The position numbers and the translations under genes are program-made. Below, in pieces: positions 21,060 through 34,993 of a DNA stretch of 52,466 nt. Source of the stretch: a virus (taxonomy: Duplodnaviria > Caudoviricetes). Where the stretch lies: IMG/VR virus record IMGVR_UViG_3300037042_001548, positions 1 to 52,466 of that record. One strand, given 5' to 3'. The first letter of the stretch is position 1. Each line of letters begins with the position of its first letter. Under the pieces are notes generated by a model. That model worked only from the letters and a program-made list of their open reading frames with translations, was not told the origin of the DNA and did not search any database.

Positions 21060-21259
21060 TTGATGAGTGTAGGTCTAGTAAGTTGCTGTGGCTGGTCAGG
21101 CGCGATGCTTTCAGCACCTCGTGCCATTTGTGCTCTAAAAGCTGCCCATTTGCGTTGCTGCACTGGATCCTCCGACGGAGGCGTCCAATTGTACAGCTTA
21201 CGCCACCGAATGGTGATGTCCGTTGTTGCAGGGGTGTAGACAAATTCTTCTGTGCTCAC
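21044..21259 (-). CDS. hypothetical protein
   Basis: 71 aa; YTPATTDITIRWRK...PPSEDP; GTG start overlapping the upstream stop; AGGAG RBS. Confidence 0.7.
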   Translation of the reverse strand: MSTEEFVYTPATTDITIRWRKLYNWTPPSEDPVQQRKWAAFRAQMARGAESIAPDQPQQLTRPTLIKWKTP

Positions 21260-21978
21260 AGCTCAGCTCCTTTTGTGTTAAACCACATCCTCAGTGTTGA
21301 CATGCCGCCGTCGATTAGCACATGCTGCGGCAAGATTTTGTACTTGTTGTACACAGCATGGGAAATAAAGTTCTTCATCAACAGATAGGCGTGTGCCTCG
21401 CCCATGTCAAGATGCCTTGCGGCTTCATTGCCTATAAACCGCAACACAAACTTGTCACCAAACTCACGCTGCATAAGCTGTTCTTGATCTGGCAAAAGCC
21501 CAATGATGGTCACATGTGGTTTTCGAACGCCTGCGCCTTCATAGGTGGGGTTGTGCTTTTCAAGTTTGAACGTATGTTCCAACTCTTTGACTTCACGCTT
21601 AACAGCTTGAACCAAGGTAGCAGCAATCCTTGCTGCAATTGCCTCTACCATTGCATCCAGGCTTATCACTGGTGGTGGTTCTGATGGCGCTGGAGGCACT
21701 GGATCTACAACCGTAGGGGTTACTACCTCTTTTTGCCCCAAAGGCTTCTGCGCCAGGCTCTTTATATACGCAGGGTACGCATCTTGCATATGCCTAAGCT
21801 CAACCGTAGCTGACGAGTGCGTTGTAAACGCACGATGCCGCTCTTTAGGAAGCTCCTGAGTTTGCGCAGTACGCAACGCAGCCAACTGCGATTGCATGCC
21901 ACCGCTGTGGTACAGCGCAAGCGCTTTTTGCAAAACGGCATTGCGTTCGCTAGTTGTCCAATGGATACGTGTGATCAT
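21256..21978 (-). CDS. hypothetical protein with a DUF2325-like C-terminal domain
   Basis: Start reassigned to MITRIHW behind the GAAAGG RBS; C-terminal VTIIG...FISH...GGMSTL pattern. Confidence 0.65.
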   Translation of the reverse strand: MITRIHWTTSERNAVLQKALALYHSGGMQSQLAALRTAQTQELPKERHRAFTTHSSATVELRHMQDAYPAYIKSLAQKPLGQKEVVTPTVVDPVPPAPSEPPPVISLDAMVEAIAARIAATLVQAVKREVKELEHTFKLEKHNPTYEGAGVRKPHVTIIGLLPDQEQLMQREFGDKFVLRFIGNEAARHLDMGEAHAYLLMKNFISHAVYNKYKILPQHVLIDGGMSTLRMWFNTKGAEL

Positions 21979-21985
21979 GGTGTGG

Positions 21986-22037
21986 TACCTTTCAAAAGTC
22001 AAAAAAGTGTGGGCTAGCCACACGTGAATTATACATC
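21986..22037 (-). promoter_or_regulatory. promoter (-10 TATAAT), hairpin and TTTGACTTTTGAAAGG leader
   Basis: TGTATAAT at 22028-22035, stem gtgtgg/ccacac at 22007-22023, leader motif at 21986-22003. Confidence 0.7.
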
Positions 22038-22811
22038 CAAAAGCCAACAGGAGAAGGCATGTTTGTCGTCAATGCATTTCGTACTCAAGAGTTGAGCCTC
22101 ATGCGTTGTGATGTATGGCGGTCTATCTGCCACTGGCAGGTAGGAATTGGTTGATAGGATCTTATTGAACATCTCCATGCGCGACTCGTAGACATGAAAA
22201 GAGCCTGCGGAGACGGTCAGCGTACCCATTTGAACAATCAAGAGTGCCGCAACGATCTCATGCAAAAACGAGAATGTTGGCAAGTCATTTGCCATACCCC
22301 ACAGAATGTCTTGACTTCGCATGATGGCGCGCATGTTAAGCTTGCCATCCCTAAGCCTAAACTCAATGGCCAAGGTACAAGGCACATCCTTGGCCTCGGG
22401 GTCCATATGGTCTACGTCGGAGCCGTACATGGGGATCACCGCACGACGGGACATGGGGTCTTGCTTTAAGATGTGGTGTATGAACCCTACACCGTGGGGG
22501 CCAAACCAATAGCTACCGTAGTTGCTATTGAGCTTGCCATTGAGCACGATCTTGCCCCACTGCGCTGCGTGCGCGGCAATAGATAGGTCATGCGGATCGG
22601 CTTTGATGTACCAAGCCATTTCGCGCTTTAGGTACTTCAGATTGAAGTTGCGGCCTTCGAAAGAGTTGAACCTCACACCGGGGTCACATACGTATGAAAA
22701 GTTCTCAATTTCAAGACACTCAGCACCGCGTGGGCTGGCCCACTTACCCATCGTGGATAGCCCACGGTACAGGTTGATTAGCTCTTCCTCGGTTCTAATT
22801 CGCATTTCCAT
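22029..22811 (-). CDS. thymidylate-synthase-family enzyme, dCMP hydroxymethylase-like (T4 gp42 type)
   Basis: YLKREMAWY (E64), NSNYG, DPMSRRA, VPCT (C145), MRSQDILWGMAND (D176 where ThyA has Asn), GSFHVYE. Confidence 0.85.
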   Translation of the reverse strand: MEMRIRTEEELINLYRGLSTMGKWASPRGAECLEIENFSYVCDPGVRFNSFEGRNFNLKYLKREMAWYIKADPHDLSIAAHAAQWGKIVLNGKLNSNYGSYWFGPHGVGFIHHILKQDPMSRRAVIPMYGSDVDHMDPEAKDVPCTLAIEFRLRDGKLNMRAIMRSQDILWGMANDLPTFSFLHEIVAALLIVQMGTLTVSAGSFHVYESRMEMFNKILSTNSYLPVADRPPYITTHEAQLLSTKCIDDKHAFSCWLLDV

Positions 22812-23730
22812 AGTCAGCCTCAGTGATGTGGTAGGGTTGGTTGGGAAAATTTTGCATGTGGTACAACGGCGGCGGTAATTTGTAAGCACGCACCTCGTTG
22901 TTCAACGCCCATGTGTACGCGTTGTTGCCTAACGCAAAGATTTTGCTAGGCTTTAGCGCGGCAATAAACGCCGGTGATGTAGGCGTACCTTGATACGTTT
23001 GTGTGTTAGCCCAGTACAGCTGCGTTTCAGCAATGCCTTCGCGCTCAAGTGTATCCGCCAGCATACGACTAGGGCCGTCGTTATCCTGGAAGTTGATGAA
23101 AGGCACAACGGCTGCGGAGGGCCGCACATTTGCACGTGGGCCTTTATCGCAAAGCATCAAGATGTTGCCTTCACGAAAACAGCCGCCTCCAGAATGTTTG
23201 TTTGTGTATGACTTATCATTCAGCTGCTGAAGAAGTTCGCTGAGTGTCCCAGAAGTGTAATCATATTGGATTACTGGTAGGCATGTACGCTGCGGCAGCT
23301 GCTCGTACTCATCATAGACCTGTTTTAGCTGCCCGATGGTGTCAAGGTACTCATCATCAATGCGCGACATGAACGTCTTTGCGCAAACTTCAAAGTCAGG
23401 TTGGCATTGCACAACAACGGCGCCGCGGGACAAGGCCACCCGTTCAAGCATGCGCCGCCTTGGCATATCAACGCGATTTTCGCCTTTACGATATACGCTG
23501 CCGTAAATAGGCTCAGACAGCCATGACCTATCCATGATGACGTGGTCATCGTAGGTTAGGGCCTGCGACATAGAGCGAAAAAAGATTTTGCAAAGATCCT
23601 CACTTTGTACGCCTTTGTATGGGCCGTGCTTGATGACATGCGTCATGCCGTTGCTTTGCAACTGCGCACGCAATGTCTCAGCTAGCGTCGTTTTACCGCC
23701 GCCATCTGGCCCCTCAAGAATGATGATCAT
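22795..23730 (-). CDS. dNMP (thymidylate-type) kinase fused to a C-terminal UDG-like domain
   Basis: IIILEGPDGGGKTT P-loop and IMDRSWLSEPIYG; the last ~130 aa resemble the uracil-DNA glycosylase superfamily. Confidence 0.8.
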   Translation of the reverse strand: MIIILEGPDGGGKTTLAETLRAQLQSNGMTHVIKHGPYKGVQSEDLCKIFFRSMSQALTYDDHVIMDRSWLSEPIYGSVYRKGENRVDMPRRRMLERVALSRGAVVVQCQPDFEVCAKTFMSRIDDEYLDTIGQLKQVYDEYEQLPQRTCLPVIQYDYTSGTLSELLQQLNDKSYTNKHSGGGCFREGNILMLCDKGPRANVRPSAAVVPFINFQDNDGPSRMLADTLEREGIAETQLYWANTQTYQGTPTSPAFIAALKPSKIFALGNNAYTWALNNEVRAYKLPPPLYHMQNFPNQPYHITEADYGNAN

Positions 23731-24617
23731 TTAAGAATGCTTTCAAGTTTTGCAAGTGTTTCAGGCCTAGTTGCGGTTTTTAAGCTGGTGATTTGCTGCC
23801 CAACCAATTGTTGGTGCTGCTCATCGTTCATGGCCTCAATCTCATGCAGTGTATGACTATACGCAGGGCCAATCATTCCAAGCTCTTTAGGATCTCCGCC
23901 AAGGATTGCCCCGGTGTGTGCAGCGTGCAGGTAACGGACTCGCCACCATCCGCAACCCGCATGGGCATAAGTCGGACAAAGAACGCCTTTGTAGCTCCCG
24001 TACTCCCAGACAACGTCACTTTCAAGGATGCGTGGCTGTCCGAGTGCCTTTCCACCAACGCTATAAATTGGCCACGATAGATTTTGTTGGCTTGCCCACT
24101 CATGTGCCTCCCTCGATAGCGACGCGTTGTACCACTCAGCTTTTCTGTAACGCCACGCAAAATGATGGCAACCTGGAGACTCGTACAAAGGCGACGGATC
24201 CCACGTGTGGATGACATCAACCGGCAAGCCCATTAGCTTAGGGTCACCCCATGGGAACAACGGGGCCAGCCATACATGCTGTTGCAAATCAGCCGCAGGA
24301 ATAACATGCTCCCATGAAGGCAGAATCTTCTGGAAGGCCCAATCATCCAAGCTAATAATAGCATCCATACGCTCTTGCAAAACCCTTTTGGGGCCTTCTG
24401 GATGCACAGCATTGTTGTCCAATGGGTACATGTAGAGGAACACCTTGTCAAACTTTGACAGGTCAGTGTCCTCACGCACATAGTCATGTGTTACCTCATG
24501 CCCAAGGGCCTTAAAGCCTTCGCGCATAAGCTCGGGGATTGACACAAACTTTGTAGAGCTTGCGCGCCTGGGGTTGTTGTTATGCGTCTCAGTGACGCCG
24601 GTAATGAGGATCTTCAT
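23727..24617 (-). CDS. putative DNA glycosyltransferase (GT-B, beta-glucosyltransferase-like)
   Basis: MKILITG...ALGHEV...DLSKFDKVFLY...LDDW N-terminal Rossmann pattern; GWWRVRYLHAAHTGAI in the C-domain; operonic with the dCMP enzyme. Confidence 0.65.
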   Translation of the reverse strand: MKILITGVTETHNNNPRRASSTKFVSIPELMREGFKALGHEVTHDYVREDTDLSKFDKVFLYMYPLDNNAVHPEGPKRVLQERMDAIISLDDWAFQKILPSWEHVIPAADLQQHVWLAPLFPWGDPKLMGLPVDVIHTWDPSPLYESPGCHHFAWRYRKAEWYNASLSREAHEWASQQNLSWPIYSVGGKALGQPRILESDVVWEYGSYKGVLCPTYAHAGCGWWRVRYLHAAHTGAILGGDPKELGMIGPAYSHTLHEIEAMNDEQHQQLVGQQITSLKTATRPETLAKLESILK

Positions 24618-26288: not shown

Positions 26289-26550
26289 TGTCCTCCTTAC
26301 TGTAAGTCACATGCACCTTGTGACCTAGCCGCGCAAGATCAGCATGCACCTTTTCTTGCAAAGCTGATAGCTTACCTCCCGGCCGTTTAAGCTCTACCCA
26401 AAGCACCTCGCCATTTTCAAGAGCAACAATGCGATCAGGCCAACCGCGTGTAAATCGCACATGCAATTTCAATGTCATCAGCTTATGCTTTTTGCATTGC
26501 GCCGAGAAGTACCTTTCCAGGTCGCGTTCAAGCAGTACGCGTGCTACCAT
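26263..26550 (-). CDS. VRR-NUC domain nuclease
   Basis: LERDLE...GWPDRI...WVELKRPGGKLSALQ. Confidence 0.9.
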   Translation of the reverse strand: MVARVLLERDLERYFSAQCKKHKLMTLKLHVRFTRGWPDRIVALENGEVLWVELKRPGGKLSALQEKVHADLARLGHKVHVTYSKEDIDRVLGTA

Positions 26551-27179
26551 TGGCATGGGCCCCCATTGGATTTGCGAAAGTGGCACCACCGGCAGCCATA
26601 GTCTGGCTTTGGCGCAAAGATGTCGTCGTTTTCAATCTTTTTAATTCTGTCAGTTAGCCATGCTTTCAACACAACCAACTCGGATCGCTTGTACGTGTCA
26701 TGCGGCATGCGCTTGTTGAGGTCTGTGTAGCAAATCTCGGTGGTAACGTAATCAATTTCTGGATTGCATACCATGATGATGGTGGCGTATAGCTTTAGCT
26801 GGTCGCCGTAGTCCCGTTCTTTGCCTGACTTCCAATCCAAAACATGTGCATGCCCATCTTTGTGCCACACAGCGTCATACACGCCGCGCACCCAATACTT
26901 AGGGTCTTTGAAATCACAAGGGACCCAGTCGCGTGTAATGGCAAACTCGGTTTCGCATTGCGTATGCTTTGCAGTAAGTTCTTGTACGTAATCAAGCCAA
27001 AACTTTTGCGTGTCAGGTAGCATGCCTAGGCCCATAATGGCATGCTCAAACTCGCTGTGAATTAGCTTGCCCCGCTCCGCGGCTTCACCTGAAGGCTCTT
27101 TGCGATGCTCAATGCGTGTGAGCTTGTACTTGTAGGGACATTGCTCGTAAGCTTTGATCGATGAATGTGAAAAGCCCAT
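26544..27179 (-). CDS. PD-(D/E)XK exonuclease (Cas4/RecB-like)
   Basis: SHSSIKAYEQCP, RGKLIH, VYDA, LDWKSG, QLKLYA, CRWCHF..C (four Cys). Confidence 0.88.
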   Translation of the reverse strand: MGFSHSSIKAYEQCPYKYKLTRIEHRKEPSGEAAERGKLIHSEFEHAIMGLGMLPDTQKFWLDYVQELTAKHTQCETEFAITRDWVPCDFKDPKYWVRGVYDAVWHKDGHAHVLDWKSGKERDYGDQLKLYATIIMVCNPEIDYVTTEICYTDLNKRMPHDTYKRSELVVLKAWLTDRIKKIENDDIFAPKPDYGCRWCHFRKSNGGPCQW

Positions 27180-31900: not shown

Positions 31901-32278
31901 TCACTTGCGACGAACACTGAGTTCCCAAACATCCGACGTGGATGTTCCGGGGATAGACTCGCCTGCTTCCCAGCGCTCACGGAATGCAGTCGAGGACAGC
32001 CGCTTATGCAGCAGTTCAAATTGTTTGGTATCAGCGACGTAGCCATAGAAGGCTTGCCAATCGTTGATGGCGGGGTGACGCACCAGCTTCATAGACAGGG
32101 ACGCCTTATCGCTGGCGGCCTGCGTAATGCCAGCATGCGACATCAAATCCATGATGTCTTTTTCAAGGCCGGCCAGATCTGTGGTGCATTTGCGTACGTC
32201 TTCAGAGAGTGACTCACGGCGAGCCTTGATCTCTACGTACTTGTCAATGAGGTCTTTGATGTTCATAGTACTGCTCAT
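31901..32278 (-). CDS. hypothetical replication-module protein
   Basis: Coiled coil followed by INDWQAFYGYV...ELLHKRLS...IPG. Confidence 0.75.
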   Translation of the reverse strand: MSSTMNIKDLIDKYVEIKARRESLSEDVRKCTTDLAGLEKDIMDLMSHAGITQAASDKASLSMKLVRHPAINDWQAFYGYVADTKQFELLHKRLSSTAFRERWEAGESIPGTSTSDVWELSVRRK

Positions 32279-32691
32279 TTTATGTCATCAACGCCGCTGT
32301 ACTGCATCTCGCTTATAAGCAATTGCATTTCGCATTCCGGCGCAACCCAGCCAACCGGCTTGACCACGTCGTACTGGTTGCCTCGCACAGAGCGTATGTA
32401 GGCATTGGCCGGTTGCTTTTGCATGTTGGACCGGTGCACTATGTCAAACAGCTTGTCAAAGGGCATACCCATGGCGTGTGCGCAGCCCATTGCAACGTAG
32501 ACCAAGTCCACCAACGCGTCCGCCGCGTCAACCAAGTGCCCCTCCTCCACCGCGCGAAGATACTCGCTGAGCTCTTCAAGAATGAACCGCGCAAAGTAAC
32601 TGGTCTCGGTGGGCTGTAGAAACATAGGCCGCTCGCCTATAGGCAAGGACATGGCCTTACGGAACTCACCAACTTTTTCAAAGTTCGTCAT
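32275..32691 (-). CDS. MazG-like all-alpha NTP pyrophosphatase (DR2231/PRA-PH-like)
   Basis: EELSEY...DAADALVDLVYV...VHRSNMQK...KPVGW. Confidence 0.85.
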   Translation of the reverse strand: MTNFEKVGEFRKAMSLPIGERPMFLQPTETSYFARFILEELSEYLRAVEEGHLVDAADALVDLVYVAMGCAHAMGMPFDKLFDIVHRSNMQKQPANAYIRSVRGNQYDVVKPVGWVAPECEMQLLISEMQYSGVDDIK

Positions 32692-33970: not shown

Positions 33971-34029
33971 TACCTTTCAAAAGTCAAAGAATGGGAGGCC
34001 AGTCCTAGGCCTCCCGTGAATTATACATC
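33971..34029 (-). promoter_or_regulatory. promoter, hairpin and TTTGACTTTTGAAAGG leader
   Basis: TGTATAAT at 34020-34027; stem gggaggcc/ggcctccc at 33993-34015; motif at 33971-33988. Confidence 0.7.
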
Positions 34030-34993
34030 AGGCCAGCGCCAGGAGTGCCTCGGCAACTTTGGCCTTGACGTTCACCCCGCCGCCGAACCAGGCATTGGCC
34101 AGCCGAGCGTCATTGGTGCGGGCGGTTTCCCAATCCAGGAGCTGCGTAACGGCGTTGAGTGCGCCCCATGCTGTGCCTTTGGCCGACTCCAACTCGGCGC
34201 CGATGCCGGAGCCTTCGAAGAGGGTCAGTGCTCGAGCTGCAGCGCGGCTTGGCTTTTTCTCGTCGCCGCCAAGGATCTTGGTGAAGACGTTCTGTGCTTG
34301 TGCCGAGCTGAGTTTGATGCCGGCCAGGACCTTGGCGGTTTGCTCAAAAGTCTTAAACGCGTCGTTGAACTCGCCGAGCCGCGCCTTGACCGACGCGGGG
34401 TCAAACACGCTGTTGTGGCGAACTTGAACTACGCTTTGCATACCGGCGCCAATTGCAATCTGCATGGTGTTGTTGCACACCACGCGGACAGGGGTCAGCC
34501 GTGCCTGAGTGGCCAGGGAGCCATCGCAGCTCGATGCCAAGAGGAGATATGGGTTGACCTTGTCGCCTGCAACGGCGAACTCGCCATCCATCCGAGCCAG
34601 TGCCCAGTAGTGAGCGCCGTTGCGAAGGACGCCTGCTGTTTCCAGGTGGGCGATCGTGCCGACCATGTCGCGGAAGAATTCCAGCACCTCGATGGGCTGC
34701 ACAATCTTGTAGCTGTTGCTCACCAGGCCAAGGGGCTCCTTGGTATCAGCGCGGTACATCACCTTCTTGCCATGGTAGGCAAGCCGCTCGGTACGCATGC
34801 CGTTCCAAGCCGTCGGGGGGATGTCGAAGTTGACGGTGGCGGTGGCCAATTGGAAGGCCAGACCAGACTCCTCGGCCCAGGTTTCGATGCTGCTATCTTG
34901 CGTGAGACGTTGACCCAGGCCGTGCCAAGGGGTGTCACCAACGTAAGCCATAGCTGCTTTGCCGGTAGAGGTGGATGCGATCATGTGAGCCAT
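34028..34993 (-). CDS. DUF932 / TIGR03299-type phage-plasmid protein
   Basis: MAYVGDTPWHGLG, YKIVQP, ETAGVL, SCDGS, VRVVCNNT, GTAWGALNAVT. Confidence 0.88.
   Translation of the reverse strand: MAHMIASTSTGKAAMAYVGDTPWHGLGQRLTQDSSIETWAEESGLAFQLATATVNFDIPPTAWNGMRTERLAYHGKKVMYRADTKEPLGLVSNSYKIVQPIEVLEFFRDMVGTIAHLETAGVLRNGAHYWALARMDGEFAVAGDKVNPYLLLASSCDGSLATQARLTPVRVVCNNTMQIAIGAGMQSVVQVRHNSVFDPASVKARLGEFNDAFKTFEQTAKVLAGIKLSSAQAQNVFTKILGGDEKKPSRAAARALTLFEGSGIGAELESAKGTAWGALNAVTQLLDWETARTNDARLANAWFGGGVNVKAKVAEALLALA

Follow-up and report, generated by a model that had tools for sequence, protein, structure and literature searches.

The window analysed here, the whole 52,466-base virus record IMGVR_UViG_3300037042_001548 of IMG/VR, carries a gene whose product joins a P-loop deoxynucleoside monophosphate (dNMP) kinase to a C-terminal domain with the predicted alpha/beta fold of the uracil-DNA glycosylase (UDG) superfamily. 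This fusion gene stands beside a thymidylate synthase (TS) homologue of the deoxycytidine monophosphate (dCMP) hydroxymethylase type. The assignment of the fold, made on a structural model, is solid. The function is read more tentatively: the domain may be a remodelled pseudo-glycosylase that has lost the excision of uracil, still binds a pyrimidine ligand in its former pocket and serves the kinase or its pathway as a binding or tethering module. A family of kinase and UDG-fold proteins beside a dCMP hydroxymethylase is apparently undescribed so far. A preliminary description of this DNA had already remarked that the fusion was not known from characterised pathways, and in keeping with this the literature search found no paper describing a kinase/UDG fusion, although an earlier mention cannot be ruled out.

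The gene and the parts of its product are located as follows:

22795..23730, minus strand: kinase/UDG-like fusion gene, 311 aa (list of open reading frames, ORFs)
23221..23730, minus strand: P-loop dNMP kinase domain, residues 1-170 (profiles, Foldseek)
23167..23220, minus strand: linker, residues 171-188, with conserved GGG.F (alignments)
22831..23166, minus strand: minimal UDG-fold domain without Fe-S cluster, residues 189-300 (AlphaFold2, Foldseek, Pfam in relatives)
23137..23154, minus strand: motif A equivalent LCDKGP, residues 193-198 (column counts)
23098..23103, minus strand: Pro210-Phe211, equivalent of the base-stacking PF of family-4 UDGs (column counts, UdgX alignment)
23005..23016, minus strand: YWAN, residues 239-242, with Asn242 at the place of the Asn that recognises uracil (column counts, UdgX alignment)
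22858..22878, minus strand: motif B equivalent LPPPLYH, residues 285-291 (alignments, column counts)

Fold and motifs of the UDG-like domain

The AlphaFold2 (AF2) model of residues 175-311, computed from a 123-row alignment, has a predicted local distance difference test (pLDDT) score of 88.2 and a predicted template modelling (pTM) score of 0.83. Comparison of this model with the PDB by Foldseek retrieved UDG-superfamily chains or a UDG-fused polymerase in 43 of the 44 matches listed, including family-4 UDGs, UdgX, SMUG, poxvirus D4 and the UDG-fused phage polymerase. The top match was the family-4 UDG 1ui1 (E 1.4e-4, probability 1.00, TM-score 0.58 for the query and 0.44 for the target) and the sole non-UDG fold among the matches listed was a cutinase (E 0.059, probability 0.41). 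The best structural matches are the family-4 UDGs of Thermus thermophilus (UDGa, 1ui0/1ui1), Thermotoga maritima (1l9g/1vk2) and Sulfolobus tokodaii (4zby) together with UdgX (6ail and related entries), with which the domain shares the same order of motif A, PF, Asn motif, LG.A strand and motif B. Structural matches in BFVD comprised unnamed viral proteins, phage G gp315, viral UDGs and PolA-UDG fusions. The preliminary description had placed a UDG-fold domain related to families 4 and 5 after the kinase, and had named a predicted structure unlike the UDG alpha/beta fold as the result that would speak against it; AF2 and Foldseek agree with the proposal, and no such departure was seen in the model of residues 175-311.

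At the sequence level, the Pfam UDG family PF03167 was matched by four of 47 homologues (best E 6e-8) and was found as a precomputed match in one of 120 homologues among the matches listed, while Pfam UDG was not matched at E<=1 by the window protein itself. A profile built from 14 canonical C-terminal domains produced weak PDB matches (E 0.16-0.9), 26 of 27 being to UdgX or a family-4 UDG, and its G-D/E, PF and W.N columns align with GEQPG, PFVG and YVTN of UdgX (E ~0.16). The nearest clusters in the ESM Atlas (score 0.91), with PF03167 in 18-36% of their members, are to be taken as a lead only. The resemblance of the C-terminal domain to UDG exceeds chance.

The canonical relatives share G-D/E, PF, N and HP with the family-4 UDGs. 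The domain of the window, in contrast, is unlike a family-4 UDG in being shorter (~125 residues as against 190-210), in its fusion to a kinase, in the lack of the Fe-S Cys residues and in two substitutions, His to Pro and Gly to Cys. C184 and C194 are the only Cys in residues 175-311 and the four-Cys Fe-S set is therefore absent, as had been noted before; nor was a conserved Cys quartet found in the family alignments. The strings quoted in the preliminary description are all present in the order given there, namely NILMLCDKGP (189-198), VPF (209-211), GPSRMLADTL, LYWAN (238-242), LKPSKIFALGNNA and KLPPPLY (284-290), and the interval assigned to the domain, 22795-23190, corresponds to residues 181-311 plus the stop codon. 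Motif A of family-4 UDGs has the consensus G-E-[AG]-P-G; the window reads C-D-K-G-P, with the acid kept and the Gly replaced by Cys194. The proposed change of GE to CD thus stands for the Gly and falls for the acid, Asp195 being a normal state of the family. At motif B, H-P-[SA] in family-4 UDGs, the window has P287-P288-L289, and the replacement of the His is borne out by the 111-sequence alignment, in which 96 relatives carry His at the position of Pro287. Canonical members have Lys-Arg after HPQ; this pair, which we take to occupy the site of the DNA-intercalating Arg of UdgX, is also missing from motif B of the window.

In the model of the full-length protein (pLDDT 94.2, pTM 0.92), the pTM value indicates that the kinase and the UDG-like domain are packed in a confidently fixed arrangement, and the prediction is that of one rigid two-domain unit. 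Gly181 and Gly183 of the intervening linker are nearly invariant in the family alignments, and its GGG.F lines up with G.G ahead of motif A in UdgX (HMMER alignment).

Conservation and active-site states across the family

The fusion protein has 237 homologues at E<=1e-3, most of them of 300-320 aa. Searches with the C-terminal domain gave 246 clusters (50% identity) at E<=1e-3 and, among the 150 clusters listed, 130 have lengths of 240-327 aa and are matched in their C-terminal half. This large family of fusions has been encountered exclusively in viral or metagenomic sequence. The taxa of the Atlas neighbours of the C-terminal domain are 93-100% viral, and one alignment-based scan of representative cellular genomes did not find a locus of the family. 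The larger database contains only seven short forms of the domain, each from a contig of 537-12503 nt, and these are probably fragments. BFVD and the ESM Atlas also point to viral proteins of 124-152 aa that may be stand-alone mini-UDGs, and gp315 of Bacillus phage G (331 aa) is structurally related to the domain.

In the same 111-sequence alignment the Asn of the Asn motif is present in 110 sequences, the stacking Phe in 102, Pro at the position of Pro210 in 109 and the motif-A acid in 101 (Asp in 55, Glu in 46); the residue before the acid is Gly in 88 and Cys in 16, and E235, W240 and P288 are unchanged in all 111. With His in 96, Asn, Phe and acid at these frequencies, most of the family has all the active-site residues of a family-4-like UDG and lacks only the cluster. 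Such domains in the canonical relatives are probably true DNA glycosylases of uracil type, acting on uracil or 5-hydroxymethyluracil (5hmU). The full residue set (acid, Phe, Asn and His) is kept in 116 of 131 cluster representatives. The type found in the window, in which His is replaced by Pro and Gly by Cys, accounts for nine of the 111 aligned sequences and two of the 131 representatives, and is abundant in IMG/VR (66 non-redundant sequences, hereafter the window clade).

Conservation within the window clade is higher in the UDG-like domain (mean pairwise identity 75.1%, 37.5% of positions invariant) than in the kinase (67.8% and 31%, with pairs down to ~54%). The ratio of nonsynonymous to synonymous substitution (dN/dS) is 0.083 for the domain and 0.101 for the kinase, a sign of strong purifying selection. 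The invariant residues, L.LCD.GP, PF.NF.D..GPSRM, E...YW.NTQ, ALGNNA..W and KLPPPL.H.Q, fall in the five UDG motif loops that build the pocket, and all 66 sequences share LCD.GP and hence Cys194-Asp195. Conservation above that of the kinase, together with the invariance of the pocket loops, argues that the domain has been remodelled rather than decayed. The term degenerate used in the preliminary description is accordingly not upheld: Asp195, Phe211 and Asn242, three of the four hallmarks, are kept. The same data make it quite unlikely that the domain is an inert structural relic, retained because the kinase fold depends on it; the loss of the catalytic His and the tight packing predicted for the two domains would suit a relic, but the invariants are concentrated in the former active-site loops and not only at the domain interface, and a relic would hardly be more conserved than its kinase.

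The opposite loss is seen elsewhere in the family. Among the N-terminal domains of the 131 representatives the Walker lysine is present in 85, the start is missing in 11 and 35 are aligned without the Walker lysine or the DR motif; although the alignment of these degenerate N-termini is uncertain in detail, a regular-expression check of the first 80 residues showed that G....GK is missing from these sequences. Of the 35 dead-kinase representatives, 31 retain the full set of UDG residues, which points to a function of the UDG-like domain independent of kinase catalysis, and the domain appears to be the constant part of the family. A search for the loci of dead-kinase members with a small alignment gave only two viral loci and none in representative cellular genomes. 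Dead-kinase members (proteins P0124-P0256) often have a low-complexity Pro/Gly/Ala linker. A kinase-less UDG-like ORF of 217 aa follows a 408-aa TS homologue in locus L131 (L131:3607-8776), where the N-termini of the next ORFs are suggestive, as an impression only, of a sugar aminotransferase and an NDP-sugar dehydratase.

These states bear on the possibility that the domain acts on free nucleotides, either as a second pyrimidine site that sets the specificity or allostery of the kinase or by hydrolysing or sequestering deoxyuridine monophosphate (dUMP) or its 5-hydroxymethyl form (5hm-dUMP). The rigid packing of the domain on the kinase (pTM 0.92), its near absence as a separate protein (the seven short forms), its lack of basic character and the crystallisation of UdgX with dUMP (6ajp, among the Foldseek matches listed) are all in line with this possibility. 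It is nevertheless rather improbable, given that the UDG-like domain persists in the 35 of 131 representatives whose kinase is dead, its catalytic set being complete in 31 of these, and that, to our knowledge, all characterised UDG-superfamily members act on DNA.

The kinase, the hydroxymethylase and two genomic contexts

The N-terminal domain shows the Walker A motif GPDGGGKT (7-14), a DR motif at D67-R68 and an Arg-rich stretch, RRRMLER, at 91-97. Both signatures of the dNMP/thymidylate-kinase-like group, GxxxxGK[ST] and DR(Y/S), are thus present, as is the kinase fold. E6, G7, D9, G12, K13, D67 and R68 are invariant in one of the alignments, and the Walker A and DR motifs are invariant across near and far relatives with a live kinase. 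The family profile matched SPbeta YorR in the PDB (2axp, 1.1e-10), and Foldseek with the full-length model gave YorR first (3kb2/2axp, target TM-score 0.74-0.75), followed by thymidylate and deoxynucleoside kinases, with which the fusion kinase has the fold, Walker A and DR motif in common. From these features the domain is predicted to be a catalytically intact dNMP kinase of the YorR/thymidylate-kinase-like type. PHROG 761, named 'thymidylate kinase', matches residues 1-171 at 8e-24; Pfam Thymidylate_kin (PF02223) reaches 27.2 bits against a cut-off of 27 and covers only residues 5-36, the P-loop region, and NCBIfam TIGR00041 scores 35.3 bits against a cut-off of 83.25, so that the fusion kinase does not appear to be a bona fide Tmk equivalog.

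The genes that place this kinase in a pathway are the following:

22029..22811, minus strand: TS homologue, dCMP-hydroxymethylase type (Pfam Thymidylat_synt 5.9e-17)
23727..24617, minus strand: U296, conserved 296-aa protein (PHROG 14998, unknown function)
32275..32691, minus strand: MazG/PRA-PH-type NTP pyrophosphohydrolase (Pfam PRA-PH 1.5e-16; PHROG 671 9.6e-26)

The ATG of the fusion gene overlaps the stop codon of U296 as ATGA, and the ATG of the TS homologue, at 22811, overlaps the final 17 bases of the fusion gene; from these overlaps the three genes are expected to be translationally coupled. The best PDB matches of the TS homologue are the CMP hydroxymethylase MilA (2.9e-14) and the T4 dCMP hydroxymethylase (4.5e-12). 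In TS homologues N177 marks dUMP and Asp at this position dCMP as substrate, L143 marks methyl and Asp/Glu hydroxymethyl transfer, and D169N marks the 5-hydroxy-dCMP synthases (PMC13326640). Alignment to TS, MilA and T4 dCMP hydroxymethylase revealed L143D, C146, D169 and N177D in the window protein, and the combination of L143D, D169 and N177D makes it a homologue of the dCMP-hydroxymethylase type. The setting of 5-hydroxymethylcytosine (5hmC) biosynthesis supposed in the preliminary description is supported by this pair of substitutions, N177D and L143D.

The comparison of contexts covered 80 non-redundant loci, 14 with an intact His and 66 of the window clade. N177D and D169 were found in 80 of 80 and L143D in 79 of 80, the exceptions being one Leu at 143 and one X at the Cys. 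The idea that intact-His forms accompany a dUMP-specific and the window type a dCMP-specific TS homologue was rejected on account of N177D in all 80 loci. The protein with Leu at position 143 (L107:6867-8231) is the sole TS homologue to combine L143 with N177D, for which a methyl-type product is predicted; it is unusually long (454 aa) and may be a fusion.

Because the fusion gene is coupled to a TS homologue of this type, its kinase most likely makes 5hm-dCDP from 5hm-dCMP. The MazG-type pyrophosphohydrolase is a candidate dCTPase of the 5hmC pathway, and hydroxymethylase, kinase and pyrophosphohydrolase together most likely bring about a T4-like replacement of dC by 5hm-dC before replication. 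The likeness to the T4 pathway (gp42, gp1, gp56 and glucosyltransferases) lies in an N177D/L143D hydroxymethylase, a dNMP kinase and a pyrophosphohydrolase within one replication module. Unlike T4 gp1, the fusion kinase comes from a different family and carries a UDG-fold domain; the pyrophosphohydrolase of the window is of MazG type, and no glucosyltransferase was recognised, U296 being unassigned. As far as the available sections of the source go, YorR/TMK-like 'nucleotide kinases' also adjoin TS homologues in 5-hydroxycytosine phages and in the cytosine-modification clusters of phages DLP3, RB69 and RL38J1 (PMC13326640); compared by description only, these are listed without a UDG-like extension.

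Stenotrophomonas phage AXL3, the one cultured relative with a publication, offers a point of comparison, for which the available portions of the published report give three relevant statements: 35 of 37 restriction enzymes fail to cut its DNA, the two cutters having sites of A/T only; the gene pair in question was named thymidylate kinase and thymidylate synthase by its authors; and the published function list, in those portions, holds no other kinase (PMC7504290). The TS homologue of AXL3 (gp28) has N177D and L143D, and gp29 is a kinase-UDG fusion with an intact His. The activities predicted from these signatures contradict the published names, and the dCMP-hydroxymethylase signatures fit the resistance of the DNA to enzymes with G/C in their sites.

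Two genomic contexts can be distinguished. A dCMP deaminase gene lies downstream of the hydroxymethylase in 14 of 14 intact-His loci, whereas none was found within the fetched flanks of the 66 window-clade loci, and the window record gave no Pfam dCMP deaminase match. Intact-His loci further have an NTP pyrophosphohydrolase upstream (11 of 14) and a methyltransferase (8 of 14). U296 precedes the fusion gene in all 66 window-clade loci and is found in one of the 14 intact-His loci. The same U296 context is seen in L173, a member of a sister clade that has lost the His as well as the acid; an IMG/VR scan for this 'LCS' clade returned nearly exclusively window-clade loci, L173 being the one true member. 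The correlation between deaminase and His fits an intact domain that handles uracil-type bases arising from a deaminase-fed dUMP or 5hm-dUMP pool, and without a deaminase the glycosylase activity would no longer be needed.

U296 gave no match in Pfam, NCBIfam or a PDB-profile search, and the Atlas provided a weak lead to Glyco_trans_1_2 (12% of one cluster). The protein is rich in invariant Trp, Gly and His residues, for example in GVTETH, DDW and CPTYAHAGCGWWRVRY. The surrounding module contains an SNF2 helicase, a Cas4-like nuclease, a family-A DNA polymerase, the MazG/PRA-PH pyrophosphohydrolase, a DUF932 protein and a primase, and the 10 kb around the fusion gene had no megablast match in the phage collection. 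Further features of this region are:

26544-27179, minus strand: Cas4-like PD-(D/E)XK nuclease (replication module)
34028-34993, minus strand: DUF932 protein (replication module)
21256-22047, minus strand: 263-aa ORF directly 3' of the hydroxymethylase gene

AXL3 carries the same Cas4-like gene, which was discussed by its authors. The 263-aa ORF is kept at 37-88% identity in many window-clade loci, and no match to it was found in Pfam, PHROG or NCBIfam.

Proposed role of the domain and related systems

The mechanism that we tentatively prefer begins with a fusion kinase that would phosphorylate 5hm-dCMP in a phage that replaces C by 5hmC ahead of replication. Its C-terminal domain would be a minimal, Fe-S-less descendant of family-4-type uracil-DNA glycosylases. 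Relatives with the intact residue set, encoded beside a dCMP deaminase, probably police DNA whose precursors come from a rewired pyrimidine pool. For the window clade, the replacement of His by Pro, the loss of the basic residues that follow it and the change of Gly to Cys before the kept Asp would have been accompanied by loss of excision, with the pocket still receiving a ligand, either a flipped DNA base or a nucleotide. The preliminary description had suggested that the domain senses or channels nucleotides, shields modified DNA or performs new chemistry, each of which is a conceivable role.

Several points weigh against this interpretation. The correlation between deaminase and His represents essentially few independent evolutionary events, as it is drawn from two or three clades. 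The window record is estimated to be 79% complete. The dN/dS values of the window clade come from only 264-268 of 2145 pairs, dS being saturated in the rest. The C-terminal domain has a median net charge of 0 in the window clade and of -3 among canonical members, and a domain that is not basic lends no support to DNA binding. Finally, the family-2 enzymes MUG and TDG lack the His and are active glycosylases, so that loss of the His is no proof of lost excision. A predicted complex of the TS homologue with the C-terminal domain found no support, a result that counts neither way.

The example of MUG and TDG leads to a domain that would still be an active glycosylase of altered specificity, His-less like these enzymes and directed, for example, to 5hmU:G arising from deamination of 5hmC or to uracil in 5hmC DNA. 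The retention of Asp195, Phe211 and Asn242 and the strong purifying selection on the invariant pocket loops would suit such an enzyme, and the superfamily can be retargeted to modified cytosines, as exemplified by Brig1 in the accessible sections of its description (PMC11078745). According to the same sections, Brig1 also has a UDG-superfamily fold closest to family 4 and belongs to the biology of (glucosyl-)5hmC DNA; it is, however, a host defence protein that reads cytosine by means of a Glu in place of the Asn, whereas the domain of the window is encoded by a phage and keeps the Asn (PMC11078745). An active glycosylase is doubtful all the same, as the Lys-Arg after HPQ has gone along with the His and the clade lacks the adjacent deaminase found by all 14 intact-His forms.

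Other phages join a UDG fold to an enzyme of replication or nucleotide metabolism. In the PolA-UDG fusions of SP-15, YerA41 and phiLo, which like the fusion studied here belong to phages with modified pyrimidines, the available excerpts describe a polymerase partner, an active UDG and modification of T, in contrast to the dNMP kinase partner and presumed modification of C in the window (PMC13697223). The structure 9qhs and viral PolA-UDG proteins are among the structural matches listed.

A more distant parallel is found in thymidine hypermodification, whose core, in the parts of the source at hand, consists of a P-loop kinase and a transferase of DNA-glycosylase fold with a conserved Cys and a neighbouring Glu, and among whose enzymes gene fusions occur (PMC8989533). 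By analogy with this pair, the 5-hydroxymethyldeoxyuridine (5-hmdU) DNA kinase and aGPT-Pplase, the UDG-like domain might flip a 5-hydroxymethylpyrimidine so that the kinase could phosphorylate the base and/or Cys194-Asp195 could attack C6. In a fuller version the domain would be a catalytic module on a UDG base-flipping scaffold, with Cys194-Asp195 working on C6/C5 and the kinase activating the hydroxymethyl group on DNA; the fusion would then be the cytosine-side counterpart of the thymidine system, with a hypermodified cytosine, possibly finished by U296, as product. The parallel extends to the combination of a P-loop kinase with a glycosylase-derived domain in a C5-pyrimidine cluster and to a Cys beside an acid, which in the window clade is invariant in 66 of 66 sequences, in a gene that adjoins the conserved U296. 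Both versions are very unlikely. The kinase of the window resembles the nucleotide kinases (YorR, TMK and deoxynucleoside kinases) and is mononucleotide-kinase-like, and a 5hm-dCMP kinase is needed in any case, none other being annotated in the available AXL3 text. Most of the family lacks the Cys, 88 of 111 sequences having Gly at its position. The tblastn search of the phage collection gave 26 records, with no characterised 5-hmdU-DNA-kinase phage among them (none from Pseudomonas M6, Salmonella ViI, Bacillus SP10 or Delftia PhiW-14), and as judged from these records the fusion shows no homology to the 5-hmdU DNA kinases M6 gp54, ViI gp67/gp243, SP10 gp186 and PhiW-14 gp37. Moreover, aGPT-Pplase is described in the available sections as having a helix-hairpin-helix and not a UDG fold, so that the likeness is one of analogy only (PMC8989533). 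On the same ground the C-terminal domain was rejected as a relative of aGPT-Pplase (PMC8989533, PMC5889632).

Phage DNA-modification pathways yield new nucleic-acid enzymology and determine which host defences a phage evades. The family presents an apparent reciprocal inactivation, with a dead kinase and an intact UDG in some lineages and an intact kinase and a rebuilt UDG in the lineage of the window, from which it would follow that, in 5hmC phages, selection maintains a separate function of the UDG-like domain. Routine annotation is also corrected, as genes of the AXL3 type have been named 'thymidylate kinase' and 'thymidylate synthase'. Once found, the function of the domain could reveal a phage-encoded quality control of uracil or 5hmU linked to the synthesis of precursors, a module that reads or shields modified bases, or a new base chemistry.

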